Source: Alphaproteobacteria bacterium
GTDB lineage: Bacteria > Pseudomonadota > Alphaproteobacteria > Rs-D84
DNA: 62,225 bases
Direction of reading: 5' to 3'
NCBI GenBank assembly: GCA_046881895.1
Contig: JBKSMR010000012.1
Coordinates: 1 to 62,225 of the forward strand
Part shown: positions 16 to 58,611 of the stretch, in pieces
How positions within the stretch are numbered: position 1 is the first letter of the stretch
How the letters are laid out: each line of letters begins with the position of its first letter
Notes under the pieces: model-generated
Told to the model about the DNA's origin: nothing
Database searches by the model: none
What the model saw: only the letters and a program-made list of their open reading frames with translations
Position numbers and translations under genes: made by a program

Positions 16-129
16 TCTGGTGATTATTGAGCGGGAGCCACCCTCTGTTCCATCCCGAACCAGACAGGGAAACCCCGTATCGCCGATGGTACTTTGGCTT
101 AAGCCACGGAAGAGTAGGTCGTCGCCAGA
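16..129 (+). rRNA. rrf: 5S ribosomal RNA
   Basis: Conserved 5S blocks are present (ccatcccgaac, gccgatggta, agagtaggtcgtcgccaga). The terminal helix is tctggtga/tcgccaga. Extended flanking complementarity ggatttattctgg (8-20) with ccagaataaatcc (125-137) looks like a precursor processing stem. Confidence 0.85.
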
Positions 130-18132: not shown

Positions 18133-19233
18133 ATGAACAAATACCTTAATCAGATTTTATTGGGTGATTGTCTGGAAATAATGCAAGGTATTCCAGATGC
18201 GTCTGTTGACGCGGTGTTTGCGGACCCTCCATATAATTTACAATTGGGTGCAAAAACATTGTACAGACCCGAAGATCAAACAGCTGCCCGTGCAGTGCGT
18301 GATTCATGGGATTCTTTTGAATCAAACACCCAGTATGATGAATTTACCCGTGCATGGTTGGCAGAATGCAAACGCGTGTTAAAGCCAAATGGTGCCATGT
18401 GGACAATTGGCAGTTATCATAACATTTTCCGCGTTGGCAGTATTTTGCAAGATATGGGATTTTGGATTTTAAATGACGTTGTTTGGGTCAAGACGAATCC
18501 GATGCCGAACTTTCGCGGTACACGCTTTACCAACGCACATGAAACATTGATTTGGGCTACGCCGACCAAGACAGGAAAATATACTTTTAATTATGAAACG
18601 ATGAAGAAGTTAAATGGTGGCAAACAAATGCGTTCAGATTGGGATTTAAATATCTGTCTGGGCGAAGAACGTGTCAAAGACAGCAATGGGAAAAGTTTGC
18701 ACAACACGCAAAAGCCATTGGATTTATTACATCGTGTAATATTGGCGTCGACCAAGCCTGGTGATGTTATATTGGATCCATTTATGGGGTCTGGCACAAC
18801 GGCTGCTGCGGCGATTGAGCTGGGACGCCAGTTTATCGGTATTGAACGTGAAGAAGCTTATGTAGATGCTGCACGTAACAGAATTGCAAATGTAAAGCCA
18901 ATAGATTTGTCAGATATCGAAGTATCAAAGCCAAAACGCGATGAAGTACGTGTGGCCTTCAAAGAATTGATAGATGCGGGTTTGTTGTTTGTTGGTCAAA
19001 CATTGGTCAGCCCACGTGGCGAACGTGTGATGATAACGCACGATGGGCAATTAACGCATCAGTTATATGGCAAGGCGTCAATTCATGTTATGGCAGCAAA
19101 ATTACAACGCAGTGTCAGCTTTAATGGCTGGGATTATTGGTCTGCCCAGAAACATGACGGAACATTAGTTCCAATTGACGAATTGCGTCAATATATCAGA
19201 CGTATCAAGTCAGATATGAAACAAGCCGCATAA
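18133..19233 (+). CDS. ccrM: CcrM-type N6-adenine DNA methyltransferase
   Basis: DPPYN motif, FMGSGTT AdoMet motif, and the about 80-aa C-terminal extension typical of alphaproteobacterial CcrM. Confidence 0.88.
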   Translation: MNKYLNQILLGDCLEIMQGIPDASVDAVFADPPYNLQLGAKTLYRPEDQTAARAVRDSWDSFESNTQYDEFTRAWLAECKRVLKPNGAMWTIGSYHNIFRVGSILQDMGFWILNDVVWVKTNPMPNFRGTRFTNAHETLIWATPTKTGKYTFNYETMKKLNGGKQMRSDWDLNICLGEERVKDSNGKSLHNTQKPLDLLHRVILASTKPGDVILDPFMGSGTTAAAAIELGRQFIGIEREEAYVDAARNRIANVKPIDLSDIEVSKPKRDEVRVAFKELIDAGLLFVGQTLVSPRGERVMITHDGQLTHQLYGKASIHVMAAKLQRSVSFNGWDYWSAQKHDGTLVPIDELRQYIRRIKSDMKQAA

Positions 19234-24375: not shown

Positions 24376-25104
24376 TTAATTTCTCTTTTTTCCGTAACGT
24401 GATAAAAATTTATGTATTTGTGAATTAGTTACAGTTTGCACATCTGGTTTTTGTTCTATTTTTGTAATATTTGTAATTTTTTGCGGTATTTTTGTTTTAA
24501 CAGCGTACAGGTTTTGATTTTCACCGGTGGCCAAGAAGACTTCTTTTAATAAGTTGTCATACTTTTGTCGGAATTCCGGATTGCGTTTGTATAAAAAATC
24601 AGAAGTGCGTTCAACAAGCCCTGAATGACTATTAGGATTAAATTTTTTTATACGTGAAAACTTGCCATTTACGGATAATAGCAGCGTTTTATTTTCAGCT
24701 ACGCTGATTTTTATGTTATCAAAACTTATGTTTGTATTTTTTGCTGCGTCCATAATCATATCAAACAAAAAGTCTTGCATTGCTTCGTAATCAAGTTGCC
24801 ATTCTGGGTATTTTACATTGTTAAAATCAACTTTGCTTTCGGCCAAATATGCTTGTTTGTTTGGTGTGTTTTCCCAAGTGTCTTGCATTGTATCGATATG
24901 GTTTTGTGCAGCCTGATGATTGGTAAAGAAATAATAGCCATTACTTTGTCCACCCAACGCATTTTGTGATGAATTAAAGTAACCAGATTGTTTTATTTGA
25001 TTAAAAGTCGCATTGTCTATTGGTGTGATAACATGATACAAAGTAATATCTTTTGATTTTACTTTATCTGTTGCGGATTTTAATTTTTCTGCTGTGGTAT
25101 TCAT
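24376..25104 (-). CDS. hypothetical protein (242 aa) with weak ART-like motifs
   Basis: ORF. A tataat box sits directly upstream of the longer-ORF ATG at 25146, so the Met at 25104 is the preferred start. Motifs LYHVIT and NGYYFFTNHQAA. Confidence 0.45.
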   Translation of the reverse strand: MNTTAEKLKSATDKVKSKDITLYHVITPIDNATFNQIKQSGYFNSSQNALGGQSNGYYFFTNHQAAQNHIDTMQDTWENTPNKQAYLAESKVDFNNVKYPEWQLDYEAMQDFLFDMIMDAAKNTNISFDNIKISVAENKTLLLSVNGKFSRIKKFNPNSHSGLVERTSDFLYKRNPEFRQKYDNLLKEVFLATGENQNLYAVKTKIPQKITNITKIEQKPDVQTVTNSQIHKFLSRYGKKRN

Positions 25105-25195
25105 AGTTTTTTGTCTTTGTTTAATTGTTGGTAAAGATTGTAACATAACATTATAAAAAAGTCCATTTTATAAGAAAAATACCCCCTTGTAGGAC

Positions 25196-25216
25196 ATTTT
25201 TGCTCTCTGGAATGCG
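25196..25216. repeat. 21-nt direct repeat, left copy (atttttgctctctggaatgcg)
   Basis: Identical 21-mer occurs at 32048-32068. Confidence 0.8.
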
Positions 25217-25233
25217 TGTGGGCGAAACGCGAG

Positions 25234-25872
25234 TTATTTTGGCGTGTGTTTTTGTAGTGCTATTGTATGTAAATCAGAAACAAGATTTTTGCCTTTATAA
25301 TTTTTTATAAATTTTTTAACCAATTCAATTTGGTTTATAAAATCATCAATATTGATATACCAGGCATAGTCATATTTTGCAAATGGGTCAAATGCGATTG
25401 TATCAATTTCTGTGCGATGTTTTGTTATCCATTTATAAACCGTTTCAAAATCTATATATAAAAACATGTGATTGTGTGCAATATTATGTATTTCACGAAT
25501 GGATAAAAAAGTACTAAAAAATTTGGTATTATCTGTTGTTTTTATTTGTGGAATAACATTTGCATTTTTCATATATAAATAACTGTCATTTTCACAATCT
25601 GGTAATTTGATAATATATTCATCATTTTTACCAGGTGGACAAATATAAATCGGAACAAATATTTTTGATTGTAATAACAGAGCAAGAAAATATGCTAAAC
25701 TTTCATTGTCTTTAAATGTCATAAATTCAGCCAAAGCACTTGTTAATGTCCCGCCTAAATAATCAAAATCCTTTTCTTTGCGAATAATACAGTAATCAAA
25801 TTCATATTCAAAATCTTTGAAATGATTTTCGTCCATTATGTATGTTGATAAAGATTTTGTCGTCTTTTGCAT
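25234..25872 (-). CDS. hypothetical protein (212 aa), downstream partner of the PD-(D/E)xK protein
   Basis: ORF begins 2 nt after the upstream stop. The start is uncertain; 25836 is an alternative. Confidence 0.45.
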   Translation of the reverse strand: MQKTTKSLSTYIMDENHFKDFEYEFDYCIIRKEKDFDYLGGTLTSALAEFMTFKDNESLAYFLALLLQSKIFVPIYICPPGKNDEYIIKLPDCENDSYLYMKNANVIPQIKTTDNTKFFSTFLSIREIHNIAHNHMFLYIDFETVYKWITKHRTEIDTIAFDPFAKYDYAWYINIDDFINQIELVKKFIKNYKGKNLVSDLHTIALQKHTPK

Positions 25873-25874
25873 TT

Positions 25875-27083
25875 TTAATCTGTTATTGTTTGTAGCCAGG
25901 TTTCTAAATCTTTTAATTTTAACGATTGCCCCAGTCCATTGCGACTTTTGCAAAATTGTTTTTTATTTAATTTTGATAATTGTTCGCCAACATCTTTATC
26001 ATTTAACCAAAATCCATAGTAATATCCAAATACCGGAACACCATTGGCAATATGTTTTAATAATAATTCTTTGTTTTGTGATAACGATTTCTGTGCAAAA
26101 TTATCCCAATTCCAATGTTTGCTGTTATTCGAGCGTTTAGTGTGATATGGATAATATTCCAACGCTAAAATATCAGTATCTTTTATCCCGAATTTATCCG
26201 TCTTTTTCAAAATATTGTCCCACCATTCACAATATTCACGATAAATATGTAAATTCATCCCAGTCGGTTTATAAAAACCATCCTTGTCCATTGGATATTC
26301 TGCCAACCGTTTATAATATTTTGCATCCCCCCCAGGATTACATAAAAGAATTATCAACTTTGGCGATTTTTCATTACCTATTCGTGATACTTTATAATCA
26401 TTTGACATGTTTACTATCCTTTTTTGTGGAATTTCTACAAACAACGATTTGAACAAACCGTTTTTATCACCAGTGTCGCAAAAGTTACACCACAGGAATT
26501 CATAATCATTTTTTATTTCAAACCCAGGATGTTGTTTAATCCATTTCGGAATATGGTTTAAATCGTTATGTTGCCATTTTAAATTGCCATAACGGTATTT
26601 CCCTTGCACAGTTCTAAAAGGATAACCTTTTGAATTATTTTTCCAATTCCCAGTCCAATAAAACTTATCGTTAGTTATCATAATGCATACCCCAGAAACA
26701 ACTTGATTGTTTTCTACTAGTTGTTCTATGCGATTTATATCTTTCCAAAAATTATAACCGTTTATATCTACGGCATCGTGGTTTTTTAATATCTTTTTTA
26801 TTGGTAAACCAGTAAATCCGTATAATTGTTCTGACGGAATAATTTTGGTCTTATATTTCAGTTCAATTGGGTATAGACATTGTTTATAAACCAGCATAAT
26901 ATCAGTATAAATTATACGACCATTTTGCTCTATTGGAAACTCGAGTAAAATGGTTGCGGTGCCATTAAAAATTTTTTCTAACTCCATTGCAAAAGAATGT
27001 TGAAAGTCCGCCTCTGACACAAAAAAACGATTTTTATTTTTCAAATTTAAAAATGCTTTTTTTATATTTTTGATAACATCCAT
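25875..27083 (-). CDS. PD-(D/E)xK nuclease-fold protein with unknown C-terminal domain (402 aa)
   Basis: The N-terminal third has E...D...ExK spacing (SEADFQHSF ... YTDIMLV ... YPIELKYK). The C-terminal half has LIILLCNPGGD and YYPYHT motifs of unclear affinity. Confidence 0.55.
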   Translation of the reverse strand: MDVIKNIKKAFLNLKNKNRFFVSEADFQHSFAMELEKIFNGTATILLEFPIEQNGRIIYTDIMLVYKQCLYPIELKYKTKIIPSEQLYGFTGLPIKKILKNHDAVDINGYNFWKDINRIEQLVENNQVVSGVCIMITNDKFYWTGNWKNNSKGYPFRTVQGKYRYGNLKWQHNDLNHIPKWIKQHPGFEIKNDYEFLWCNFCDTGDKNGLFKSLFVEIPQKRIVNMSNDYKVSRIGNEKSPKLIILLCNPGGDAKYYKRLAEYPMDKDGFYKPTGMNLHIYREYCEWWDNILKKTDKFGIKDTDILALEYYPYHTKRSNNSKHWNWDNFAQKSLSQNKELLLKHIANGVPVFGYYYGFWLNDKDVGEQLSKLNKKQFCKSRNGLGQSLKLKDLETWLQTITD

Positions 27084-27143: not shown

Positions 27144-27236
27144 CGTTTCGCCCGCACACCCCAACCACACTTCGCCTCTACGAGGCTTCGTGTGGCAGGC
27201 CACACAAGGCGAGAAGCAGACGCGAAGTGTGGTTGC
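27144..27236. repeat. palindromic element containing an inverted fragment of the tRNA-Gln 3' end
   Basis: 27159-27218 is the exact reverse complement of 32387-32446 (60 nt). Outer arms are aaccacacttcgc / gcgaagtgtggtt. Confidence 0.85.
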
Positions 27237-27371
27237 ATTTGACATGCAATTCGCGAACCGATTTGATGGAAATTGGACAAGAAATAGACGAATTTAAAGA
27301 TAAATTATGTGTAACAGGTTTATTGTAATTTTTCTACTTTTATGGTACTATGCACGCAGGAGATATGAATA

Positions 27372-27920
27372 ATGGAACCGATAATTATTGACGATTTGGT
27401 ATTAAAACAAATTCCTGGAACACAAGAATTTGCACAGGAAATATACGATATATTCACATCAGATATTGATACTTTCAAACATTGGTTTGAAGGTGGTATG
27501 TGGAAGTCTGTGGATGAAGTATTAAAGTATTATCAAAGCAAGGAACAAAATAATGATTCCAGATGGAAATATTCTATGTATGGCATATTCAAAAATGGTG
27601 AATTATTGGGTGAAATCGGATTGTCGGGAATAGACACAAAACACCAAACTGCTGAAATTGGGTATTGGCTAAAGAAATCTGCACGTGGTATGGGAATTAT
27701 TGATAAGTTAATTCCAATTATAGAAGAAATTGGATTTGAAAAATATAATTTAAGGAAACTGAATATCTGGTGTGATGACGACAATATTGCGTCACGCAAA
27801 CATGCTGAAAAAAATGGATATGCCTTGGAAGGTGTTCAACGCGAACGCAAACTCTGGCCAGACGGTTCGATACATAGCACAGCGATGTTTGGAAAATTAA
27901 AATCTGAATGGAAAAAATAG
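27372..27920 (+). CDS. GNAT-family N-acetyltransferase (RimJ/RimL-like)
   Basis: The pattern ...GEIGLSGID...AEIGYWLKKSARGMGI...NIASRKHAEKNGY matches the GNAT acetyl-CoA fold. SD aggag. Confidence 0.8.
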   Translation: MEPIIIDDLVLKQIPGTQEFAQEIYDIFTSDIDTFKHWFEGGMWKSVDEVLKYYQSKEQNNDSRWKYSMYGIFKNGELLGEIGLSGIDTKHQTAEIGYWLKKSARGMGIIDKLIPIIEEIGFEKYNLRKLNIWCDDDNIASRKHAEKNGYALEGVQRERKLWPDGSIHSTAMFGKLKSEWKK

Positions 27921-28085
27921 TTCGAAAGTGGCGAGAAATTGCCACTTTTTTTTATTTTACCTTTCGAACTCGCTTGAAACATTAGAAAACAAAAACTCGC
28001 CTTTATTGGAGGGCTTGTCTATCTTGGTTGGGGTGTGCACAATTCGCGAACCGAATTGTTGGAGGTTGGACAAGAAATAGATAAG
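27919..28085. repeat. cassette boundary element, copy 1
   Basis: Contains agttcgaaagt...actttcgaact arms, then ttgaaacattagaaaacaaaaac, a (degenerate) hairpin, cttggttggggtgtg, the gcacaattcgcga..gaattg hairpin and ggacaagaaatag. Confidence 0.85.
27928..27953 (+). terminator. Rho-independent terminator after the plus-strand GNAT gene
   Basis: gtggc-gagaaatt-gccac followed by a T8 run. Confidence 0.7.
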
Positions 28086-28110
28086 ATGAAACAGAAATTT
28101 TATTAAAATA

Positions 28111-28656
28111 TTATCTTTCTTTTACATAAATCAAAGAATCACATTTACCAACGCATTTTGCCCAAGAGGCCATTGGTAATACTTTTTCTAATTTATACTT
28201 ATTACGTTTTGCTAGATTTTCTGAATGTGTATTTCCATTGTCTATATCCAATACAATCTTGCCAAAACCAAATTTGAATAATTCTGTTTCTAATGCTTGC
28301 AGTGCTTCACTCATAAATCCGTTGCCATTTGCAGATTTTATCAACCAATATCCTATTTCACATCCATTGTCTTGAATATTAAAAAAACGAATTCGCCCAA
28401 TAATATTATCTTTATGGTAAATATAAAAACACATGCCTTGGTTATCTTTAATTTGATTGGCGCGTTTTGTCAAATATGCAATCACATCATCAGGGGTTTT
28501 TAATTCACCAAAATGTCCCTGCCAGTCCATAAAATAATCACGATTTTGTTCAATAATGTTAAAAAGTTTTATTGCGTTTTCCTTTGTTGGTAATACAACC
28601 TTTAATACCAATCGTGATGTTTTGATTGTTTGCGGAAAATTCGATAAAGCTTTCAT
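28111..28656 (-). CDS. GNAT-family N-acetyltransferase (RimJ/RimL-like)
   Basis: GRIRFFNI...CEIGYWLIKSANGNGFMSEA...NTHSENLAKRNKY. Upstream are gtgatataat and SD aaaagga. Confidence 0.8.
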   Translation of the reverse strand: MKALSNFPQTIKTSRLVLKVVLPTKENAIKLFNIIEQNRDYFMDWQGHFGELKTPDDVIAYLTKRANQIKDNQGMCFYIYHKDNIIGRIRFFNIQDNGCEIGYWLIKSANGNGFMSEALQALETELFKFGFGKIVLDIDNGNTHSENLAKRNKYKLEKVLPMASWAKCVGKCDSLIYVKER

Positions 28657-28690
28657 AAAATTAGTCCTTTTCAGAAATTATATCACAATT

Positions 28691-28855
28691 GGTTCAAAAA
28701 TGACAATTTTTTGACATTTTTTAAAACCTAACTTTCGAACTCGGTCAAAACATTAGAAAACAAAAACCCGCCTTTATTGGCGGGCTTGTCTATCTTGGTT
28801 GGGCTTGATGCACAATTCGCGAGCTGAATTGCGGGAGATAGAACAAAAGATTAAA
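28691..28855. repeat. cassette boundary element, copy 2
   Basis: Same architecture as copy 1. The tRNA-like core is tggttgggc. Confidence 0.85.
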
Positions 28856-28863
28856 GATTATTT

Positions 28864-29670
28864 TTATCTCTCGCGCTGAACCAATTTTTCTTTCTGTCTG
28901 GCAATTTCTACAATTCTAAAATCATAAAAATCGTGTAACCGCTTTATCCATTTTTCTTTTTCTGATTTTGTTAAGCGACGAGGAACATAACCTTTCATAA
29001 ATTCTTGTTCTATATGTTTTAATTTTTCAGCATCAACATGTGTTTTCATTGGTGACAATGTTTTATCAGTTCTTACCACATTATTTTGTCTGAATACAAT
29101 ATACGAATCATCACCACCGCATTCTGTAAAGTTTTTATAAGAAAAACCGTCTATGCCAACTGATTCAAAAAATCTTATCATTCTTTGAAAAAACAAATTT
29201 TCTGCGTTCGCTTTATCATACAAAGATTCATAAGATATCTCTTGTTTGATTTTGCCATCGTCAATAGATTGCGAAATAAAATCATATTGATAAGGTAATT
29301 TTTTTAACGCCACGAATTCGCATTTTTTTTGGATGTTATCCCATTTTTTCAAATTATCTATATCTTCAATAATGGTTTTATCCAATAAAAAGGCTAAAAT
29401 TATTGCCTGCCAATCTTCCACATAATGATTATTCAAGTCAGGTATTTCTAGATAAATTCCTTTTCTGAAATGTACCGGTATAATTTTTGGTTTGTTTATA
29501 TCTATATTTTTATCACGTTTCCATTTGCCTTCATTTAACACCGTTTTAGCAGAAGACTCTGTGCCGAAATGGGACAACGGAAAAAAATAATCAAAATCAT
29601 AATAAGTACCATGAAAACAAGTTATAGCCTTACCAGATTTATCGTATAAAAATTCATTATTACCTGTCAT
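28864..29670 (-). CDS. hypothetical protein (268 aa), possible H-Y-[E/D] ADP-ribosyltransferase fold
   Basis: Motifs CFHGTYYDFDYF, RKGIYLE and DDSYIVFRQNNV. The first 28 codons of the track ORF lie in the boundary repeat, so the start was moved to ATG 29670. Confidence 0.5.
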   Translation of the reverse strand: MTGNNEFLYDKSGKAITCFHGTYYDFDYFFPLSHFGTESSAKTVLNEGKWKRDKNIDINKPKIIPVHFRKGIYLEIPDLNNHYVEDWQAIILAFLLDKTIIEDIDNLKKWDNIQKKCEFVALKKLPYQYDFISQSIDDGKIKQEISYESLYDKANAENLFFQRMIRFFESVGIDGFSYKNFTECGGDDSYIVFRQNNVVRTDKTLSPMKTHVDAEKLKHIEQEFMKGYVPRRLTKSEKEKWIKRLHDFYDFRIVEIARQKEKLVQRER

Positions 29671-29691
29671 GCCAGTAGTTATACCATAAAG

Positions 29692-29853
29692 AGTTCGAAA
29701 ATACAAATTTTTTACAATTTTCCACAATCGAACTTTCGAACTTGCTTGAAACATTAGAAAACAAAAACCCGACTTTATTGGCGGGCTTGTCTATCTTGGT
29801 TGTGGTGTGTGGGCAATTTGTGAGCTGAATTGGTGGAGATTGGACAAGAGATT
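29692..29853. repeat. cassette boundary element, copy 3
   Basis: Same architecture as copy 1. The tRNA-like core is tggttgtgg. Confidence 0.85.
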
Positions 29854-29874
29854 AATAAAGTTAAAGATATATTA

Positions 29875-30462
29875 TTAAACTAAATTTCGGCTTTGAATCC
29901 ATGATAAATAATGATTTTTATTGTCCAGTTTATAAGCATACTTTTTTAATGGCTTGAAATTATCAATTATCTTTATAACTTCTTTCAACACGTTATCTTT
30001 GCTTTTTCCTGCGACATCAACCATTACTTCATTTGGCAACAACTTACGACTTTTTATTACCGAATTTGACCGTTCAACATATTCCGGGCGGAACAAACCA
30101 CCCTCATTATTTTTTCTGTGTTCCATTTGTTTCTTTATCTGCTTTGGGTCACTGGAAACAAGTCTGATTATTATAAATTTATATCCATGAAAAATCTTTG
30201 GTAGTTCTCTTGCCCTTATATCATCAAAATCCAAGGCAACAATGTTCCGCAATCCTTTGTCATAAAAGAATTTTATTTGTGCCAAAGTGTTTTCCCAACA
30301 TAACTTTTCTTCATATAAACCAATGTCTTTCACTTTCTTTGGAATAATAAACTCTGGAACCATATTCTGTTCAATATATACACCTTTGTAGTGCTGATAC
30401 AATTCCTTTGCCAACGTTGTTTTGCCGACAGCACTTGGACCAATAACAAATATAAAATCCAT
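29875..30462 (-). CDS. P-loop NTPase / small-molecule or nucleotide kinase-like protein (195 aa)
   Basis: Walker A IGPSAVGKTT at the N-terminus. Size and layout match adenylate/shikimate-kinase-like proteins. Confidence 0.55.
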   Translation of the reverse strand: MDFIFVIGPSAVGKTTLAKELYQHYKGVYIEQNMVPEFIIPKKVKDIGLYEEKLCWENTLAQIKFFYDKGLRNIVALDFDDIRARELPKIFHGYKFIIIRLVSSDPKQIKKQMEHRKNNEGGLFRPEYVERSNSVIKSRKLLPNEVMVDVAGKSKDNVLKEVIKIIDNFKPLKKYAYKLDNKNHYLSWIQSRNLV

Positions 30463-30488
30463 AGCTTTTACACCTTTTTATAAACCGT

Positions 30489-30518
30489 ATTATATCATAA
30501 AAAGTTCACAAGTGGCAA
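30489..30518 (-). promoter_or_regulatory. cassette promoter (TTGCCA-18 nt-TATAAT with TG extension)
   Basis: Minus strand reads ttgcca cttgtgaactttttatga tataat, followed by SD aaaggtg and ATG 30462. The same TGATATAAT box recurs upstream of 28656 and 31945. Confidence 0.5.
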
Positions 30519-30664
30519 AAATTTGCGATTTTCCACAATCGAACTTTCGAACTCACTTGAAACATTAGAAAACAAAAACCCGCCTTTATTGGCGGGCTTG
30601 TTTATCTTGGTTGGGGTGTGTGTGCAATTTGCGAGCTGAATTGCGGGAGATTGGACAAGAGATT
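30503..30664. repeat. cassette boundary element, copy 4
   Basis: Best-preserved copy. Contains the cccgcc-tttatt-ggcggg hairpin, cttggttggggtgtg, the gcaatttgcgagctgaattgc hairpin and ggacaagagatt. Confidence 0.85.
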
Positions 30665-30704
30665 GACGATATAAAAAAGAAATCTATCACTTATTCAAAT
30701 GATT

Positions 30705-31382
30705 TTATTCGTATTTCTTCAGCAAATCTTTCCATGTCTGTGGTGCATCCACTTCATCAAAGTAAGCATTCAAAAAACTAACCAAGGTTTGATGTTTTTT
30801 CTCTGCATATTTGCGTCCCGGTTCTGTTAAGCACATATCGCGCAAATGAAAAATTTTAACAAAAAAGTGATTTACACACGGATCGACTTTTGATTTTCTA
30901 TACTTTTCGGCATCCATTTCTTCTGGGAAATAATCTGGATCAAAGAAAGGTTGACCCGTTCCAGAACGATATTCTATGCACCGTAACAGACCTGTACATC
31001 CTGATGCGTCACACATATCAGCATCGGATACAATAGCACCTTCGATACCATATGCAGCAATACCCTTTAACCGTTTACTGTATCCAATAGTTTTTACAAT
31101 ATTTATACATTTTTCGCAGAATTCGGCATCAAATCCAGAACCAGACAATATGCGTTTGGTATTGGTCATCAGACGTTCAGATTCTTCACCAAACAGTTTA
31201 TAATCATCACAATCATGCAATAATGCAGCAGCAGCCACCAAATCACGATTAGCAGATGTAATTTCATCACAAAATTTCATTGCCGTATTATAAACGCGAA
31301 ACACATGTTTATCATCATGCCCGTTAAAGTTATTTTTAAGTAATTCAATCACTGCATTTTTTATATATTCAATACCTGTCAT
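30705..31382 (-). CDS. HD-domain metal-dependent phosphohydrolase (YedJ-like size)
   Basis: HDDKHVFRV ... AALLHDCDD motifs. Start set at ATG 31382 after SD aaaggtg. Confidence 0.65.
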   Translation of the reverse strand: MTGIEYIKNAVIELLKNNFNGHDDKHVFRVYNTAMKFCDEITSANRDLVAAAALLHDCDDYKLFGEESERLMTNTKRILSGSGFDAEFCEKCINIVKTIGYSKRLKGIAAYGIEGAIVSDADMCDASGCTGLLRCIEYRSGTGQPFFDPDYFPEEMDAEKYRKSKVDPCVNHFFVKIFHLRDMCLTEPGRKYAEKKHQTLVSFLNAYFDEVDAPQTWKDLLKKYE

Positions 31383-31471
31383 ACAAACACCTTTATTGCG
31401 GTATGACATGCTATCATAAAAAACTATATATGTCCAAATGTTATTAAAAAAGTTCGAAAGTTGAAAAAAAT

Positions 31472-31945
31472 TTACCTTATAAATTCTGCTTTTTTATTAA
31501 TTCTTTTTATTTTTTCTAATAATTCTGGTAAATATTGTTCGTATGCTTTGGACCAACGTAATAATTTAAACAATGTGACTAAATTTTCTTTATGGTTCTT
31601 AGGTTCTATACCCAAAATTTTTTTAACCCAGCGTTTAAAAATACGGTATTGGCGAACCCGAGTTGATGGTTTTAAAATGATGATTCTATCTGATTGTTCT
31701 AATATAGGTATAATCCAGTCTTTTGTATAAATCCCTTCAATAACCCAATTATCATTTTCGGATAAAATTTTATCACGCAGAGCAAACCTTTCTTCTTTCG
31801 GTCGTTCACAATTAAAACAATTTTTTTCGTTTATCCATTTTATATCATCTAAATCAAAATGAGGAATTTTTAATTCTTTAGAAAGTTTTTTTGCGTATGT
31901 TGTTTTTCCGCTTCCCGGACCGCCAGAAATAAAGATTTTTGCCAT
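31472..31945 (-). CDS. P-loop kinase-like protein (adenylate-kinase/FlaR-like, 157 aa)
   Basis: MAKIFISGGPGSGKTTYAKKLSKELKIPHFDLDD. Confidence 0.6.
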   Translation of the reverse strand: MAKIFISGGPGSGKTTYAKKLSKELKIPHFDLDDIKWINEKNCFNCERPKEERFALRDKILSENDNWVIEGIYTKDWIIPILEQSDRIIILKPSTRVRQYRIFKRWVKKILGIEPKNHKENLVTLFKLLRWSKAYEQYLPELLEKIKRINKKAEFIR

Positions 31946-31975
31946 AATTCATGCCTTTACAGCAAATTATATCAT

Positions 31976-32037
31976 GAAAAAGTTCGAAAGTTGAAAAAAA
32001 TTTGCAATTTTCCACAATCAAACTTTCGAACTCGTCA
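31976..32037. repeat. cassette boundary element, partial copy (left module only)
   Basis: aaaaagttcgaaagttgaaaaaaatttgcaattttccacaatcaaactttcgaactcg. An even shorter remnant lies at 31446-31476. Confidence 0.8.
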
Positions 32038-32047
32038 AAGTCTTATA

Positions 32048-32068
32048 TTTTTGCTCTCTGGAATGCGC
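32048..32068. repeat. 21-nt direct repeat, right copy
   Basis: Identical to 25196-25216. Confidence 0.8.
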
Positions 32069-32084
32069 ACGAGACCTTGATAAA

Positions 32085-32330
32085 TTATTTCCAAAAATGT
32101 CTTTTTGCGAATGCGTATCCGGAACCTGTTTTAAGATATTGTTCAAATTCCAACGCGGCATCTTTTGAACTAAACGCAAAATAATTTACCAATTCCCAGG
32201 GTTTATATTTTGCCGTATGTATTGAATATCCTGCATTATGTTGCTTTAGTCGTTTTTTTAAATCATCAGTTTGACCGATGTATTTTTGTTCTGGATAGGA
32301 AATGCTTTTTATAAGATAGACATAAAACAT
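32085..32330 (-). CDS. GIY-YIG nuclease-family protein (81 aa)
   Basis: MFYVYLIKS...KYIGQTDDLKKRLKQHN is the GIY-YIG signature. Confidence 0.75.
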   Translation of the reverse strand: MFYVYLIKSISYPEQKYIGQTDDLKKRLKQHNAGYSIHTAKYKPWELVNYFAFSSKDAALEFEQYLKTGSGYAFAKRHFWK

Positions 32331-32369
32331 TTGATTTTTATTCCCGTCCGCCTACGCCAAGGCTACGGT

Positions 32370-32446
32370 GGACACTACTTCGCCTATGCTTCTCGCCTTG
32401 TGTGGCCTGCCACACGAAGCCTCGTAGAGGCGAAGTGTGGTTGGGG
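32370..32446. repeat. palindromic trailer element abutting tRNA-Gln
   Basis: Arms acactacttcgcc / ggcgaagtgtggt with an internal gtgtggc..gccacac hairpin. The right end overlaps the tRNA 3' end. Confidence 0.8.
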
Positions 32447-32511
32447 CGCACGGATTCGAACCATGATAAAGAGAACCAAAATCTCTTGTCCTACCATTAG
32501 ACGACACCCCA
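32438..32511 (-). tRNA. tRNA-Gln (anticodon UUG)
   Basis: Reverse complement TGGGGTGTCGTCTAATGGTAGGACAAGAGATTTTGGTTCTCTTTATCATGGTTCGAATCCGTGCGCCCCAACCA folds as a cloverleaf. Anticodon loop is TTTTGGT. CCA is encoded. Confidence 0.88.
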
Positions 32512-32559: not shown

Positions 32560-33171
32560 TTATCGTGAGTGCATTTTAAATTGTGTGCCTTTTTGAATCA
32601 TGTCTTGTAGTTTATCAAATTCAATTTGTTTGCGGCTGCGAATATTGTGCTGTGCCAAGAATTCTTCTTGGGCTGCAATATATTGTTGTTGTTGCGTTGG
32701 GGACATAGATGCAAGTTCTATACCGCGGTCGGTCGAAAAGAATCTTGGGTTAAAACCACGCTCCCACGATAGGCGAATTCTATCTGCATCCCATAAACAA
32801 GCAGATACATTGTCTGTTGCGTTGTGGCCAGTTGTATGATTTTTAACGGCGTATAGGATTCTGGAAATATCATTTTCTGACATGTTCGGATAGTGTTCTT
32901 TCAAGAATTGTTTACCAATTGGCACGGCCATTGGTCCGTGTTCTGTACACCATGCATCATTTGTTCTGGCACAATCGTGCAGGGCAGCTGCTAATAATAC
33001 AGGCAATGGTTCTTGATCAATGTGTTGTGCGATATCAAGTGCGAAAAATGCGACTTGAATCGTGTGTGACAAACCATGATATCCGTATCGTGACTGGTTT
33101 GTTATCTGCGTTATTTTTGGCAGAATATCATCAAAGAATAGTTTTGTATATTTTATACGTTCTTTTAACAT
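32560..33171 (-). CDS. HD-domain protein (203 aa)
   Basis: GLSHTIQVAFF ... AAALHDCARTND motifs. Confidence 0.6.
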   Translation of the reverse strand: MLKERIKYTKLFFDDILPKITQITNQSRYGYHGLSHTIQVAFFALDIAQHIDQEPLPVLLAAALHDCARTNDAWCTEHGPMAVPIGKQFLKEHYPNMSENDISRILYAVKNHTTGHNATDNVSACLWDADRIRLSWERGFNPRFFSTDRGIELASMSPTQQQQYIAAQEEFLAQHNIRSRKQIEFDKLQDMIQKGTQFKMHSR

Positions 33172-42115: not shown

Positions 42116-42846
42116 TGACACGATATAAAGTAATCTTAGAATACGATGGCACAGATTTAATTGGGTGGCAGGAAAACCGCCAAGGACCATCTGTGCAGTC
42201 TATTATCAAAGATGCGATTTACGCTTTTTGTAAACAGCGTCCAGATGTTGTTGGTGCAGGGCGTACTGATGCTGGCGTGCATGCTGTTGCAATGACCGCT
42301 CATTTTGATATTGACGGTGAATTTGATGCGAATACTGTTATGCGTGCATTAAACTTTTATCTAAATAATAAACCTGTATCTGTTTTAGATTGTGAAATAG
42401 TATCCGATGATTTTAATGCACGTTTCGATTGTATTGCACGTCATTATAAGTATGTTGTATTAAATCGCAGTGCATCACCAGTATTGAACAAAAATCGTGT
42501 TTATTGGGTGCCAAGAAAACTGGACGTTAATGCAATGCGTGCTGCGGCACAAAAGTTATTGGGTAATCATGATTTTACCAGTTTTCGTGCGTCTGAATGT
42601 CAGGCAAAGTCTCCGATAAAGACACTTGATAAAATTGAAATTACACAGAATGGTGATGAAATTATTTTTGAATTTTCTGCACGTTCTTTCTTGCATCATA
42701 TGGTTCGTAATATTGTTGGTACTTTGGTTGAAATAGGTCTGGGAAAATCATACGATATCGACGAAATTTTCGCTGCTAAAAATCGTAGTGCTGCGGGTCC
42801 AACTGCACCTGCGGACGGGTTGTATTTTATTCGTGCTGATTACTGA
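42115..42846 (+). CDS. truA: tRNA pseudouridine(38-40) synthase TruA
   Basis: YDGTDLIGWQ...GAGRTDAGVHA catalytic motif. Confidence 0.92.
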   Translation: MTRYKVILEYDGTDLIGWQENRQGPSVQSIIKDAIYAFCKQRPDVVGAGRTDAGVHAVAMTAHFDIDGEFDANTVMRALNFYLNNKPVSVLDCEIVSDDFNARFDCIARHYKYVVLNRSASPVLNKNRVYWVPRKLDVNAMRAAAQKLLGNHDFTSFRASECQAKSPIKTLDKIEITQNGDEIIFEFSARSFLHHMVRNIVGTLVEIGLGKSYDIDEIFAAKNRSAAGPTAPADGLYFIRADY

Positions 42847-44798
42847 TGCCATGGGCGTTTTGATGGTGTGTATTTTACAGTTTTGTTCGGATATATAACA
42901 AAACCACCACGCAGAATTTTATTTCCACATTGTTGTGATTTTATATCAAAGTGCGATACAATATAATCTACAGATTTATCTTGGCATAATTTTTCAATAT
43001 TTTTCATCAGTGGTACAAACTTTTGAATATATGCAATTCCGTTATGACGATAGACACCATTGTCGTGCTTTAATCTGATGTTTTTAGTTTGTAGTTCTTC
43101 GTTGTTTATCTGCTTCCAGGTATCAAATGTAAAATAGTGATTTGATGCACGTGATTTATTAAACTTTAATTTTCCATCTGTATCTAAAAATCCAACTAAT
43201 TCATTGTCGTATGTTGTATAGAATATCGGTTTTGGTGTCATATAAATACTAAGTATTCCAAATCCCATAAATGTAATAAACAGAATATAGTTTACTTTGA
43301 TTTTTATCGGCTTTATCAAGATTAAACATATGAATCCGACGATAAATATCATTGCAGATAAATTTGAAATGTGTGGCACTGTGATGTTTGCGTGTGGCAG
43401 TTTAGAAATCCAATCTGCAATTTGGTATGCGTGTTCATAAATAATATGTGCAATATCGTTTGGTATATTAAAACCAAAAATTGCGGTCAGCGTACCAACT
43501 AAAATCAGTGGCATAATTGCAAAAGAAAATATAGGCAAGAAAATCAAATTGCCAATCAGACTGTATAATGGAATTTTTCCAAAATGCATCGCAACAAAGG
43601 GTGCTGTAAATATTGTTGCAACCAGTGATGTTAAAACAGATATGTATAAAACTTTTAATAATTTATTTTTCGGCATCTTAAGCTTTATGTCGGTGTACAA
43701 CCAAACAAGCCCAAAAACAGCAGCAAAAGATAATTGAAAACCTGCCTGCATTACATAATGTGGATTTATCAAGAATATCATACAAAACGCCAATGCTATA
43801 TTACGCATTGAAATTGCATTACGTCCGAATATGAATGCCAAGAATATTAAGCTGGTCATCAAAAATGCACGTATGGTTGCAACGTCTGTACCAGATAAAA
43901 ATAAATAAAACAATAACCCAATCCAAGAGCAAATAATCGCTGGCACCTTGGCAGGAACACGTCGTGTAATATACGGAATGCTTCTGAATATTAAATAAAA
44001 TAATGCAAATATCCAACCGCCAACCAGTGTCATATGAAAACCACTGATTGACCATATGTGTCCAACACCTGTGGCAGCCCAGATGTCTTTCTTGTCTTGT
44101 GATATTGCAGATTTGTATCCCAGTATCAGCGTGTCTGATAGAAATGAATTAGATTTTGTATGCAGGTGCTGTCGTATTTTGTTTATGCTTGTCTGGTTGC
44201 TGTGTTCCAAAATAGTAATTTCATCTGCGTATCCAGTCGCAGTTAAATTGTTAAAATATGACCAGCGTGCATAGTCAAATGTTTCTGGTGCAGATGCAGG
44301 TTTTGTCTTATACAGTCCGCCATTAAATTGTATTGTGTCGCCAATATTTGGTGTTGGTGTGTCTGATGATATCGACACCTTGATTTTTGCGAGTCCATTG
44401 CCCGCACCAATATCTGTTGCGTTTACAGATAGTGTAAGTTTATTTTTATCATCTGTATAATCTATGTTTTCAATAACACCAGAAATATGCAAGTTGTGTA
44501 AGTTACGTTTTATTTGCGGTGTGTTGATAATATTTGTAAAAGTGGCAGCGTAATAAAAACCGAAAAGTACCAGTAATATTCCGCGTATGCTGTTTGGAAG
44601 CTTTTTTATAAAAATACATATAAATAATATTAGTGTAATAATCGGTGTGAATAATAAATTTGGTTCATGTGTCATTGAAAAGTATGCAGCTGCACCAAAC
44701 GCCATCAGAAATGGTGCGTACAAGAACATGTTTTGCCACTGATTTTCAATCCAAGCCTTCATATTATCAGTATAGGAATTTATTTGATTGCACTGCAA
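42840..44798 (-). CDS. comEC: ComEC/Rec2-family DNA internalisation channel protein
   Basis: Polytopic competence domain with an N-terminal OB-like region. 652 aa, apparently without a full C-terminal metallo-beta-lactamase domain. Confidence 0.8.
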   Translation of the reverse strand: MQCNQINSYTDNMKAWIENQWQNMFLYAPFLMAFGAAAYFSMTHEPNLLFTPIITLILFICIFIKKLPNSIRGILLVLFGFYYAATFTNIINTPQIKRNLHNLHISGVIENIDYTDDKNKLTLSVNATDIGAGNGLAKIKVSISSDTPTPNIGDTIQFNGGLYKTKPASAPETFDYARWSYFNNLTATGYADEITILEHSNQTSINKIRQHLHTKSNSFLSDTLILGYKSAISQDKKDIWAATGVGHIWSISGFHMTLVGGWIFALFYLIFRSIPYITRRVPAKVPAIICSWIGLLFYLFLSGTDVATIRAFLMTSLIFLAFIFGRNAISMRNIALAFCMIFLINPHYVMQAGFQLSFAAVFGLVWLYTDIKLKMPKNKLLKVLYISVLTSLVATIFTAPFVAMHFGKIPLYSLIGNLIFLPIFSFAIMPLILVGTLTAIFGFNIPNDIAHIIYEHAYQIADWISKLPHANITVPHISNLSAMIFIVGFICLILIKPIKIKVNYILFITFMGFGILSIYMTPKPIFYTTYDNELVGFLDTDGKLKFNKSRASNHYFTFDTWKQINNEELQTKNIRLKHDNGVYRHNGIAYIQKFVPLMKNIEKLCQDKSVDYIVSHFDIKSQQCGNKILRGGFVIYPNKTVKYTPSKRPWHQ

Positions 44799-58579: not shown

Positions 58580-58611
58580 ACGCGAACCCACAGATTTAAT
58601 AATGTTTATAT

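Follow-up and report, generated by a model that had tools for sequence, protein, structure and literature searches.

The locus described here raises the question of how a row of single-gene cassettes is built up behind a tRNA gene in a stretch of DNA in which no recombinase was found. The window, which is the whole 62-kb stretch that was analysed, carries at 27152-32511 a tRNA-Gln gene, a GIY-YIG unit and six cassette genes, and a boundary of about 165-190 nt (typically about 170 nt) stands between neighbouring genes of the array. The existence of a conserved-boundary gene array 3' of tRNA-Gln, as given in the preliminary description, was confirmed by repeat alignments, motif counts and Pfam. 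Seven single-gene cassettes had been counted; six of them are cassette genes, but the GIY-YIG gene, together with its GC-rich hairpin, forms a unit of another kind. Pfam upheld the assignments of GIY-YIG, two P-loop kinase-like proteins, HD and two GNATs, and the label "ART-like" comes solely from homologues bearing PF18760. A 77-nt inverted repeat (27152-27228 and 32377-32453, 94% complementary) encloses the entire array and had not been reported before. Also, ComEC, CagX/VirB9-like, VirB10/ComB10-like, RecR and RmuC proteins are encoded in the window. In the literature searched we found no description of the boundary motif or of such arrays, in agreement with the earlier remark that the architecture was not recognised as a described element type. 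Table 1 lists the features of the array.

Table 1. Features of the tRNA-Gln array, in positions of the window, ordered from the tRNA gene to the distal end.
Feature	Position	Strand	Details
tRNA-Gln(UUG), array anchor	32438-32511	-	ARAGORN; Rfam tRNA 57.7 bits
GC-rich hairpin module (leader of GIY-YIG unit)	32345-32437	-	directly 3' of tRNA CCA
GIY-YIG protein, 81 aa	32085-32330	-	nuclease domain alone; PF01541, E = 4e-16
Decayed tRNA 3'-end copy closing GIY-YIG unit	32046-32072	-	GGTCTCGTGCGCattccagagagc
First inverted-repeat unit	31981-32032		arms 32022-32032, 31981-31991
P-loop kinase-like, 157 aa	31472-31945	-	Pfam AAA_17 / AAA_18
HD-domain protein, 234 aa from first ATG	30705-31409	-	PF01966
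Boundary c4	30489-30690	-	decoy ending CCCCAACCA; terminator 30576-30599; arms 30543-30553, 30503-30513
Antisense coding-like stretch inside c4	30608-30690	+	WLGCVCNLRAELREIGQEIDDIKKK...
Boundary c4 promoter	30518-30489	-	TTGCCA-18-TGATATAAT
P-loop NTPase/kinase-like, 195 aa	29875-30462	-	weak AAA_18 / AAA_33 matches
Boundary c3	29679-29872	-	arms 29732-29742, 29692-29702
ART-PolyVal-related family protein, 270 aa	28864-29676	-	68 homologues, some with PF18760
Boundary c2	28677-28860	-	terminator 28764-28787; arm 28731-28741; degenerate arm 28691-28701; promoter 28706-28677
GNAT acetyltransferase, 181 aa	28111-28656	-	PF13302
Boundary c1	27919-28106	-	arms 27960-27970, 27919-27929
Inverted GNAT, 182 aa	27372-27920	+	PF13302; stop codon abuts inverted-repeat arm
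Decoy of last cassette, distal array end	27229-27328	-	...GCAACCA
Second hairpin module, without GIY-YIG	27152-27228	+	inverted relative to proximal copy; 94% inverted repeat
Sister copies of antisense coding-like stretch	27230-27328, 28023-28106, 28796-28879, 29797-29823		29797-29823 carries a premature stop

The four intergenic copies of an element of about 165 nt were recovered by repeat search and alignment (~27900-28100, 28678-28871, 29679-29872 and 30490-30683; 76-84% identical to the reference copy), together with partial copies at 27236-27306, 31447-31473 and 31977-32034, and no copy was found in the rest of the 62-kb window. The stretch at 27233-27292, formerly read as a truncated boundary, is instead the whole decoy belonging to the inverted GNAT cassette, after which a hairpin module has been inserted. 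The invariant 20-mer of the boundary occurs 4 times when compared with 0.07 expected in the window, while AGTTCGAAAGT with at most one mismatch occurs 10 times against 0.9 expected, 9 of the 10 being within the array. The order of parts is a "...CAACCA" end (tRNA or decoy), 58 nt with a terminator, the inverted repeat AGTTCGAAAGT-N29-AyTTTCGAACT and an extended -10 promoter. The loop between the arms is 29 nt long in 47 of 61 units, and in 33 of 49 cases the first arm lies 58 nt from CCA. With about 2 bits per position, the arms stand far above the remainder of the boundary, and all 31 distinct 58-nt segments form a hairpin at one position with at least four unrelated stem sequences.

The two top promoter matches of the region are boundary promoters (11 of 12 positions each, with the TG extension), and its perfect terminators are boundary terminators. 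As had been proposed, each forward cassette has promoter-like and terminator-like signals, identified as consensus matches, and each cassette would be transcriptionally self-contained. The loop type of the inverted repeat follows the orientation of the downstream gene; for example, the inverted GNAT has its terminator (27924-27949, plus strand) in the c1 loop. In 23 inverted cassettes with no promoter behind them the arms are retained at a spacing of exactly 29 nt, and arms are wholly missing from some boundaries in L036, L047, L049 and L060. The promoter of the 157-aa P-loop gene lies immediately downstream, in the cassette sense, of the first inverted-repeat unit. On both sides of this gene lies a direct repeat of 27 nt without mismatches (31977-32003 and 31447-31473; 100%), one copy of which is a boundary half-site, the sole boundary sequence between this gene and the HD gene.

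The part of the boundary described earlier as a "tRNA-end mimic" does not resemble a tRNA, either under a covariance model or in its folding energy (z = -0.9 and -1.65), and it shares with the tRNA just C(A/C)CAACCA and its position. On the opposite strand it reads as a conserved, coding-like coiled-coil micro-ORF, which is new here. For the hairpin and the "tRNA mimic", a decoy at the DNA level that overlaps an antisense coding-like sequence is the better reading.

The encoded tRNA-Gln 3' end, ...CCCCAACCA, forms the proximal junction of the array. It was found that the true tRNA CCA and the decoy CCA precede one common set of sequences, namely a boundary, a hairpin module, a module c or a plain terminator. 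In genomes with identical tRNAs, the sequence differs already immediately 3' of CCA; hairpin modules in L058 and L050 lie exactly between CCA and AGAT, and arrays end with a decoy CCA followed by a native-type tRNA terminator. In the window, the proximal hairpin module (-43.2 kcal/mol, z = -3.4) is overlapped by the 32377-32453 arm of the 77-nt inverted repeat, and the distal one (-41.9 kcal/mol, z = -4.9) is inserted precisely 3' of the CCA of the last decoy; exact 40-mers of the module number 2 when 0 are expected. The same hairpin module follows the tRNA or decoy CCA in L001, L004, L018, L025, L029, L040, L050, L052 and L058, and an identical 81-aa GIY-YIG protein is present on at least 10 metagenome contigs with differing neighbours. 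Where the window has the decayed tRNA 3'-end copy, L001 has GTCTCGTGCGCTCCAACCA, an exact copy of its own tRNA end.

A scan of metagenomes with the boundary motif yielded 35 contigs. On decoy-bearing contigs, 19 of the 20 tRNAs are tRNA-Gln (17 CUG, 2 UUG), in every case located upstream and with the same orientation. Across 24 tRNA-Gln loci, 120 kb of 3' sequence contain 46 inverted-repeat units, none of them more than 6 kb away from the tRNA, compared with none in 99 kb on the 5' side. The boundary is therefore not a scattered repeat, and the possibility named earlier that it is a generic MITE or REP did not hold. A BLAST search of a plasmid collection gave no boundary, and in viral contigs the decoy-pattern scan found nothing and the arm-pattern scan gave one chance-level match inside an ORF.

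The gene content of the locus differs among relatives: between the GIY-YIG unit and the inverted GNAT there are five cassettes in the window, one (His_Phos_1) in L025, which shares the MarR-OEP-RND synteny, and none in L004, so that identical content in all relatives, the other outcome that would argue against mobility, was not found. L004 also has one inverted-repeat unit where L025 has two. The core flanks of the window and L025 are 70-75% identical in nucleotides, compared with 92% for the tRNA and GIY unit, 86% for the inverted GNAT and 82% for the ART-like gene; in general, cassettes reach 82-92% identity between genomes that agree to about 70-75% in their core genes. The same cassettes recur in UUG and CUG arrays at differing ranks. 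For example, the first cassette protein of the L056 tRNA-Gln(CUG) array is 91% identical to the 195-aa P-loop protein, the 181-aa GNAT has 91-94% identical copies in the CUG arrays L038, L039 and L056, and the ART-like unit has counterparts of 92.4% identity, over about 1 kb, in L018 and L052 with different surroundings. The ART-like ORF stays open up to 29754, and the HD gene is called as 225 aa in L002. The junction ACTTTCGAACT/ATTTTTyCCATTC is common to the inverted GNAT copies in L025, L037 and L050, and is also found in an L004 GNAT homologue (74% nucleotide identity). Overall, grouping of the 52 cassette ORFs gave 40 clusters and 30 families, with functions that include GNAT, HD, kinases, APH, methyltransferases, an ABC exporter and peptidases, and with no recombinase among the 52.

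Cassette-specific homology begins directly after the second arm, with a value of 0.78 versus a background of 0.35 from 8 and 2 informative pairs, a number with which a single crossover point is not placeable. Identity of the terminator region is 0.74 within arrays versus 0.64 between arrays, and the L050 array contains two identical boundary variants of about 125 nt; we regard both as signs of homologous recombination or gene conversion.

As claimed before, no integrase, transposase, resolvase or HUH family was detected by Pfam scans among the roughly 50 ORFs of the window, and no recombinase was found beside most arrays. P4-like integrases 5' of tRNA-Gln(CUG) in L063, L065 and L066 were considered and rejected: they leave 20-44-nt repeats of the real tRNA, unlike the decoy, and no arms lie next to the integrase gene there.

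The explanation that we consider best, and to which we give about an even chance, is an integron-like array whose units insert at the tRNA CCA end, each regenerating it, and are reshuffled at the inverted repeat. A unit spans from one "...CAACCA" end to the next and consists of about 10 nt (AGATAGACAA or TAGTTTCAAAA), an intrinsic terminator, a conserved spacer, the inverted repeat AGTTCGAAAGT-N29-AyTTTCGAACT, a promoter of the extended -10 type with SD (for inverted genes, a terminator in the repeat loop), one cargo gene, and a conserved block of about 70 nt ending in C(A/C)CAACCA, which copies the final bases of the tRNA. Units would enter at the CCA end and so separate the tRNA from its own terminator; since each ends in the same decoy, the target would be regenerated and units would accumulate in tandem. 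Two non-coding modules and the GIY-YIG/hairpin unit may use the same sites. Reshuffling and homogenisation of the array would come from a second junction, located in the right half of the inverted repeat, and from homologous recombination or gene conversion between boundaries. The arms, which are 11 nt long, nearly invariant and set at a constant distance, most likely bind a putative trans-encoded site-specific recombinase, although, as they overlap the promoter spacer, they could be an operator instead.

The main rival, which we consider possible but doubtful, dispenses with a dedicated recombinase: the boundary of about 170 nt would be a portable homology and expression unit (terminator, operator, promoter), with cassettes swapped, inserted or deleted by RecA-dependent recombination between boundaries, either following natural transformation or inside the array, and with the arms as operators for a shared repressor. 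The ComEC, VirB9- and VirB10-like, RecR and RmuC proteins of the window speak for it, as do boundaries 76-95% alike over more than 100 nt, the closer terminator regions within arrays, the twin variants of L050, the unfixed breakpoints of shared cassettes and the lack of a recombinase found nearby; the second arm falls in the promoter spacer and the first some 40 bp upstream of it, an arrangement typical of operators. It does not explain modules without boundary homology placed exactly between CCA and AGAT, however, nor does it sit well with arms and spacing retained in the 23 promoterless inverted cassettes or with a repeat of just 27 nt around the 157-aa P-loop gene, and the restriction to tRNA-Gln across many diverged genomes indicates a targeted process. 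Cutting of GIY-free tRNA-Gln ends or decoys by the GIY-YIG protein as a homing endonuclease, with repair from a donor allele that copies the unit and co-converts cassettes, seems improbable. The unit does stand exactly at CCA ends of tRNA or decoy, is 92-95% identical in nucleotides within differing surroundings (core genes about 70-75%) and has common MITE-like hairpin-only derivatives; yet the gene is missing from most CUG arrays, the 81-aa protein has no DNA-binding domain, and the inverted repeat and the stereotyped boundary are left unexplained.

An ordinary integron, or a CALIN (attC cluster without integrase) with diverged attC sites, shares with the locus the row of single-gene cassettes and the conserved imperfect palindromes between genes, but this reading is already disfavoured and we hold it very improbable. 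IntI is absent from the window in Pfam scans, the RYYYAAC...GTTRRRY core pairs are not enriched (2 versus 1.2 +/- 1.7 in shuffles) and are missing from most boundaries, the arms GTTCGAAA...TTTCGAAC have a polarity opposite to attC, Rfam gives no match, and the cassettes carry predicted promoters of their own. The differences from integrons noted at the outset (no intI, sites unlike attC, own promoter and terminator signals) thus hold. Similarly remote is a static locus in which cassettes do not move individually, arising by local tandem duplication of a promoter/terminator module or from a generic intergenic repeat such as a MITE or REP: the likeness of boundaries within one array would fit, but it is contradicted by the differing content of the syntenic locus, the recurrence of the same cassettes in other arrays as well as at the gene for the second tRNA-Gln isoacceptor, cassette identities above those of core genes, and copies confined to the 3' side of tRNA-Gln.

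The original interpretation as a cassette-wise array distinct from integrons is supported. The hosts of such arrays are uncultured Alphaproteobacteria of the gut and rumen, all from one lineage, and, judging from the turnover of cassettes, the core-gene figures and the shared cassettes, the array appears to be hypervariable and horizontally exchanged among them.

The array in the window is anchored by tRNA-Gln(UUG), and the minus-strand genes lying leftwards from it encode, in order, an 81-aa GIY-YIG protein, a 157-aa P-loop protein, a 234-aa HD protein, a 195-aa P-loop protein, a 270-aa ART-PolyVal-related (ART-like) protein and a 181-aa GNAT protein; the last cassette gene, beyond the 181-aa GNAT, is a 182-aa GNAT gene on the plus strand. 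The repeated intergenic element of the preliminary description was recovered in four intergenic regions, where it spans about 165-195 nt and is 76-84% identical to the reference copy, and partial copies occur at three further places in the window. This boundary consists of the end of a conserved block of about 70 nt that closes each cassette (the decoy), a terminator, two 11-nt inverted-repeat arms and a promoter. Its motifs are far above chance and are confined to the array within the 62 kb; the best two promoter matches of the region are the boundary promoters (11/12 positions, each with an extended -10), and the clean terminators of the region are the boundary terminators. The window is taken as chromosomal since it contains 5S rRNA, gyrA and cell-wall genes. 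When its approximately 50 ORFs were scanned against Pfam and NCBIfam, they matched neither PF00589 nor any other recombinase family, so integrase, transposase, resolvase and HUH enzymes are all absent from them, as had been claimed.

A 77-nt inverted repeat, 94% complementary and not reported in the preliminary description, encloses the whole array. Each of its arms is a GC-rich hairpin module folding at -42 to -43 kcal/mol (z = -3.4 and -4.9). The proximal module lies directly after the tRNA CCA and leads into the GIY-YIG gene, while the distal one is inverted, gene-less and directly after the last decoy's CCA. The repeat could permit inversion of the 5-kb array. The module ends are themselves palindromic (CCACACTTCGC...GCGAAGTGTGG). 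Within the array, a perfect 27-nt direct repeat, made up of the right half of the loop and an arm, brackets the 157-aa P-loop gene. The gene lacks its own decoy and terminator, which suggests that it was recently inserted at the inverted repeat. Just past the distal array end there are three ORFs (256, 239 and 402 aa), for which PADLOC gave nothing significant and the only Pfam match was a borderline SseB for the 239-aa ORF. On visual inspection, a D...ELK motif reminiscent of PD-(D/E)XK nucleases stands at the start of the 402-aa protein. At the other end, a 203-aa HD-domain gene is found between MarR and the tRNA-Gln promoter. Since MarR directly adjoins the tRNA in the related loci L001 and L025, unlike in the window, the 5' side of the tRNA also appears to be variable.

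A metagenome scan with the decoy motif yielded 35 contigs, which were oriented by the motif. Among the 20 tRNAs on decoy-bearing contigs, 19 are tRNA-Gln (17 of the CUG and 2 of the UUG isoacceptor), all upstream of the motif and co-oriented with it; the sole exception is a tRNA-Glu beyond the end of an array. At the 24 loci with tRNA-Gln, 46 inverted-repeat units were counted within 6 kb on the 3' side, compared with none in 99 kb on the 5' side. Together with the lack of any copy outside the array in 62 kb, this speaks against the boundary being a dispersed MITE or REP element, an alternative raised in the preliminary description itself. A scan of genome contigs with the invariant 20-mer returned 7 single chance matches in unrelated taxa. 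In viral contigs the arm pattern gave one chance match, inside a GC-rich ORF, and the decoy pattern none; BLAST of the boundary against plasmids found no match. Only tRNAs were matched in Rfam (gathering threshold and E <= 1), apart from a sub-threshold TD-2 match (E = 0.15), which was disregarded.

Over 61 inverted-repeat units, conservation is far higher in the arms, AGTTCGAAAGT and A(C/T)TTTCGAACT, than at any other position. A loop of 29 nt separates the arms in 47 units and one of 30 nt in 10, and in 33/49 cases the first arm lies 58 nt from CCA, with the identical layout (58 nt, then the repeat) after a true tRNA end and after a decoy end. The 58-nt segment always folds as a terminator in single-sequence folds, and since at least four unrelated stem sequences serve there, the structure and not the sequence appears to be kept. 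RNAalifold on 31 terminator segments predicted no pairs; the hairpin register shifts by 1 nt between types. Forward genes are preceded by TTGnC(A), the arm and TTTGTGATATAAT. In inverted genes the stop codon abuts the arm, and 13 of the 23 examined have their own terminator within the loop; loops of this kind were found in no forward cassette. The preliminary description held every cassette to be transcriptionally self-contained. This part stands as a prediction from consensus matches, namely TTGnCA-17/18-TGnTATAAT upstream of forward cassettes and a terminator after each decoy. Boundary variants without the 11-nt arms, in which a -35/-10 promoter comes straight after the terminator, exist in four relatives, and one of them (L047) retains the shorter repeat GTTGAAA-N16-TTTCAAA.

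The cassette content of the tRNA-Gln locus differs between the window and its relatives, in line with the cassette-wise mobility proposed earlier. For example, L004 has an "empty" array in which the GIY-YIG gene is followed by one inverted-repeat unit and a homologue of the inverted GNAT (74% nucleotide identity). L025-L028 share the MarR-OEP-RND-RmuC-def-fmt synteny of the window, and there one His_Phos_1 cassette lies between GIY-YIG and the inverted GNAT. In L018 and L019, tRNA-Gln is located behind CarD and the ART-like gene is the single cassette; homologues of this gene are present in Alphaproteobacteria bacterium MAGs whose sample names indicate gut and rumen material. Between the window and L025, nucleotide identity is 70-75% for the core flanking genes, 92% for the tRNA and GIY-YIG unit, 86% for the inverted GNAT and 82% for the ART-like gene. 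As the units (82-92%) are more similar than the core, they seem to have moved between diverged genomes. At least 10 metagenome contigs encode an identical GIY-YIG protein, and across them the tRNA, hairpin and GIY-YIG unit is 92-95% identical, with differing neighbours, compared with about 70-75% for core genes; the hairpin with its 81-aa gene sits at tRNA or decoy CCA ends.

Grouping of 52 cassette ORFs gave 40 clusters (80% identity) and 30 families, and nearly all units are single-gene. The families include GNAT, HD, AAA_18, APH, methyltransferases, His_Phos_1, ART-PolyVal, PQ-loop, ABC exporter, peptidases and OMP barrel; no recombinase family was among the 52 ORFs. For the cassettes, PADLOC returned weak partial matches, all of them below significance, and no clear match to a defence system. 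Shared cassettes (84-93% identical) take up varying ranks and turn up at the genes of both tRNA-Gln isoacceptors.

Judged by its junctions, the CCA end acts as an exact point of insertion. The same options follow the tRNA CCA and the decoy CCA: a boundary; a hairpin module with or without GIY-YIG; a non-coding module; a terminator with an inverted tRNA end; or a plain native-type terminator and then the flanking genes. Hairpin-only modules are located exactly between CCA and AGAT, and genomes with identical tRNAs already diverge right after CCA. Because arrays end as decoy CCA plus native-type terminator, the array lies between the tRNA and the tRNA's own terminator. The GIY-YIG unit and the non-coding module (module c) close with 13-20-nt exact copies of the resident tRNA-Gln end. 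Module c, of about 170-290 nt (...GGTTCGAAACCAAGTAGATTTGCG...AAATCGTTACGG...), sits after tRNA or decoy CCA ends and has no Rfam match. Gene-less hairpin-only derivatives are common (L029, L040, L050 and L058). Another recurrent module comprises a terminator, an inverted tRNA 3' end (GGGGCAGCTGGATC) and then GGCCAGAGC...GCGCATGGCCAATACG...ACAATTA.

A second junction lies at the inverted repeat. We count three things as support: the 157-aa gene is flanked by the 27-nt repeat, L025 has two repeat units where L004 has one, and the loop type follows the downstream gene. Cassette-specific similarity starts directly after the second arm (0.78 vs 0.35 background), a comparison with too few informative pairs. 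Homology of ART units from CCA to CCA was rejected as proof of the borders, the part upstream of the second arm being no more similar than boundaries in general. Terminators are more similar within arrays than between arrays, which is a mark of homologous recombination or gene conversion. Two boundaries of L050 do not differ over about 125 nt, and in each the terminator is missing, with CCA and arm 32 nt apart; they look like within-array gene conversion or duplication. The window also encodes a ComEC homologue, CagX/VirB9-like and VirB10/ComB10-like proteins and a RAMA-domain N6/N4 DNA methylase, possibly a candidate DNA-uptake machinery bearing on exchange by homologous recombination.

Coordinates of features in the window and in metagenome loci of relatives (L-numbers)
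Feature	Locus	Position	Strand	Remark
tRNA-Gln(UUG)	window	32438-32511	minus	array anchor
77-nt inverted repeat	window	27152-27228 / 32377-32453		hairpin modules
27-nt direct repeat	window	31447-31473, 31977-32003		around 157-aa gene
Hairpin + GIY-YIG unit	window	32085-32437
Hairpin + GIY-YIG unit	L001, L004, L025, L052, L060
Antisense coding-like copies	window	30608-30690; 28796-28879; 28023-28106; 27230-27328	plus
12-mer of tRNA-Gln(UUG)	window	30648-30659	plus	sister copies also
256-, 239-, 402-aa ORFs	window	24376-27083
203-aa HD-domain gene	window	32560-33171
ComEC, CagX/VirB9-like, VirB10/ComB10-like, methylase set	window	42840-44798, 56180-60144, 18133-19233
Boundaries without arms	L036	608-700
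Boundaries without arms	L047	176-260
Boundaries without arms	L049	1722-1800
Boundaries without arms	L060	1393-1480
Duplicate boundaries	L050	9211-9340, 10721-10850
Module c	L001	1112-1290
Module c	L034	5409-5560
Module c	L037	5341-5610
Module c	L052	1212-1385
Module c	L059	2448-2720
Module c	L065	4865-5037
Terminator + inverted tRNA end	L031, L032, L038, L057			just 3' of tRNA
Terminator + inverted tRNA end	L001	1290-1400
P4-like integrase locus	L063 (oriented copy)	int 1141-2361; tRNA 2771-2844; repeat ~2989-3032		perfect 44-nt repeat of tRNA 3' half
P4-like integrase locus	L065	5038-6205		20-nt tRNA repeat
P4-like integrase locus	L066	1-1907		truncated tRNA (positions 13-42) facing complete inverted tRNA-Gln, then CDI/TPS toxin island

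The decoy had been described as a tRNA-end mimic. A structured tRNA-like RNA was rejected, as the decoy has no tRNA covariance-model match and no unusual folding energy; with the tRNA it shares only C(A/C)CAACCA (about 6-9 nt). Its conservation reaches about 45 nt past the hairpin, and on the opposite strand one frame reads W-L-C-x-L-C-N-S-R-A/T-E-L-x-E-I-G-Q-E-I-D-E-phi-K-x-K-phi, often followed by L-x-L-x-N-L-H/Y-stop. This stretch was analysed on 56 distinct copies (L018-L063), of which 53 have no stop within the first 26 codons. Positions 12, 15, 19, 22 and 26 form a 3-4-3-4 heptad and are hydrophobic in 86-100%, six different hydrophobic residues occurring at position 22, and the codon-position entropy is 1.08 / 0.76 / 1.34. 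The synonymous-fraction test does not separate this frame from the complementary frame sharing its wobble positions. Several results speak against a real gene. Neither a promoter nor an SD is evident, and a start codon is offered solely by a TTG that overlaps the CCA end. The peptide has no Pfam match, and among 5.8 billion proteins a single match was obtained, a 72-aa read-through ORF. The window's own copies are partly decayed. The stretch may be a real micro-protein or a constrained remnant. At 30648-30659 of the window and in sister copies, an exact 12-mer of tRNA-Gln(UUG) positions 22-33 (plus strand GGACAAGAGATT) lies in the orientation opposite to the 3'-end-mimic reading; this identity may be a coincidence, since the 12-mer encodes G-Q-E-I of the antisense peptide.

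As for a recombinase, a P4-like tyrosine integrase, accompanied by an HTH_17 partner, is encoded immediately 5' of tRNA-Gln(CUG) in three relatives only (L063, L065, where it is truncated, and L066), and with its tRNA repeats it shows that tRNA-Gln is an integrase target in this lineage. We set it aside as the mover of the cassettes: it is genuine, but most arrays lack it, no arms accompany it, and its repeats consist of real tRNA halves, which the decoy does not resemble. In the CUG arrays, a bile-salt-hydrolase-like gene and a DUF1015 gene occupy the 5' side of tRNA-Gln. The GIY-YIG gene is missing from most CUG arrays, and its 81-aa protein has the catalytic domain and no second domain. Free-standing GIY-YIG homing endonuclease genes exist, such as the Seg genes of phage T4. 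Like them, the unit here is small and self-contained, lies at a precise site by a conserved gene and spreads among diverged genomes; unlike them, it has no DNA-binding domain, carries a GC-rich hairpin of about 90 nt and encodes only a predicted nuclease activity.

Integrons are the textbook bacterial means of stockpiling and shuffling single genes. The array resembles them, including chromosomal integrons and CALINs, in its co-oriented one-gene cassettes beside a fixed platform, in the conserved imperfect-palindrome site separating cassettes, and in a very diverse, mostly accessory or small-molecule-modifying cargo that varies in close relatives. On the other hand, it has no IntI, attI or Pc, its platform is a tRNA gene, its boundary also holds a terminator, a promoter and a tRNA-end decoy, and about 40% of its cassettes are inverted, with their own terminator inside the repeat loop. 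Promoterless cassettes under a common Pc were not found, the forward cassettes having predicted promoters of their own. The claim that the sites are not attC-like was upheld: the regular expression RYYYAAC...GTTRRRY gave 2 matches vs 1.2 +/- 1.7 in shuffles, and not at each boundary. The arms have GTT...AAC polarity, opposite to attC, and no R''/R' cores. We rejected three identities for the arms: attC, given the polarity and the lack of enrichment; dif, given the 29-nt spacing; and an uptake sequence spread over the genome, given the confinement to the array.

Cis-mobilisable elements (CIMEs) and the accretion of integrative elements also place tandem elements at tRNA genes. Tycheposons of Prochlorococcus are likewise tandem integrative elements at tRNA genes (bioRxiv 10.1101/2020.12.28.424599). 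The array is located at a tRNA 3' end, as in tRNA-targeting elements, and shares with these systems the displacement of older units outwards by newcomers, the piling up of degenerate integrase-less remnants and, possibly, the delimiting of units by repeats of the tRNA end. Their units, however, are integrase-carrying or integrase-derived, several kb long and bounded by real partial-tRNA repeats of about 40 nt, whereas here they are 0.5-1.3 kb, hold one gene and no integrase, and share a block of terminator, inverted repeat and promoter. In pdif modules of Acinetobacter plasmids, mobility depends on XerC/XerD and the 28-bp dif-like sites (11-6-11) alternate in orientation. They too are small gene modules between short inverted-repeat sites without a recombinase gene inside, so that the host would supply the enzyme, but the spacing here is 11-29-11 bp, and pdif modules are plasmid-borne and have no tRNA anchor, promoter or terminator. 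Neisseria minimal mobile elements exchange cassettes through transformation and homologous recombination between conserved flanks; they match the array in alternative cassettes at a fixed chromosomal site, in lacking mobility genes and in host competence genes, and differ in that homology comes from flanking housekeeping genes, with no dedicated repeated boundary and no arrays.

In function the array is integron-like: it keeps single-gene cassettes at a fixed platform and turns them over. Yet it lacks each of the defining features of integrons that the analysis was able to test. We rate it with the site-specific cassette and tRNA-island systems, with a real chance that an understanding of the enzyme and the micro-ORF will reveal a new kind of system. 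No description of the motif or of such arrays was found in the literature searched. It is conceivable, though we would not count on it, that this is an undescribed gene-capture platform, an integron analogue without a platform integrase. Its boundary would combine a tRNA-Gln-end decoy that regenerates the target, a terminator, the 11-29-11 repeat for a novel trans-acting recombinase or nuclease, a promoter and an antisense CxxC/coiled-coil micro-protein of about 30-40 aa that each boundary would encode and that would act in recombination or its control.

In this lineage, integron logic recurs at a tRNA gene with different sites, as a second, independent cassette architecture that is widespread in an uncultured gut and rumen lineage. 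The 11-nt arms and the CCA junction provide a search image for the missing recombinase and for metagenome mining. Integrons show a position effect on expression; here, since cassettes carry their own predicted promoter and terminator, a captured gene would be expressed at any rank without such an effect. The cargo (acetyltransferases, phosphotransferases, ADP-ribosyltransferase-like proteins, methyltransferases and an ABC exporter) resembles a pool of small-molecule-modifying, resistance-type functions moving between animal-gut species.
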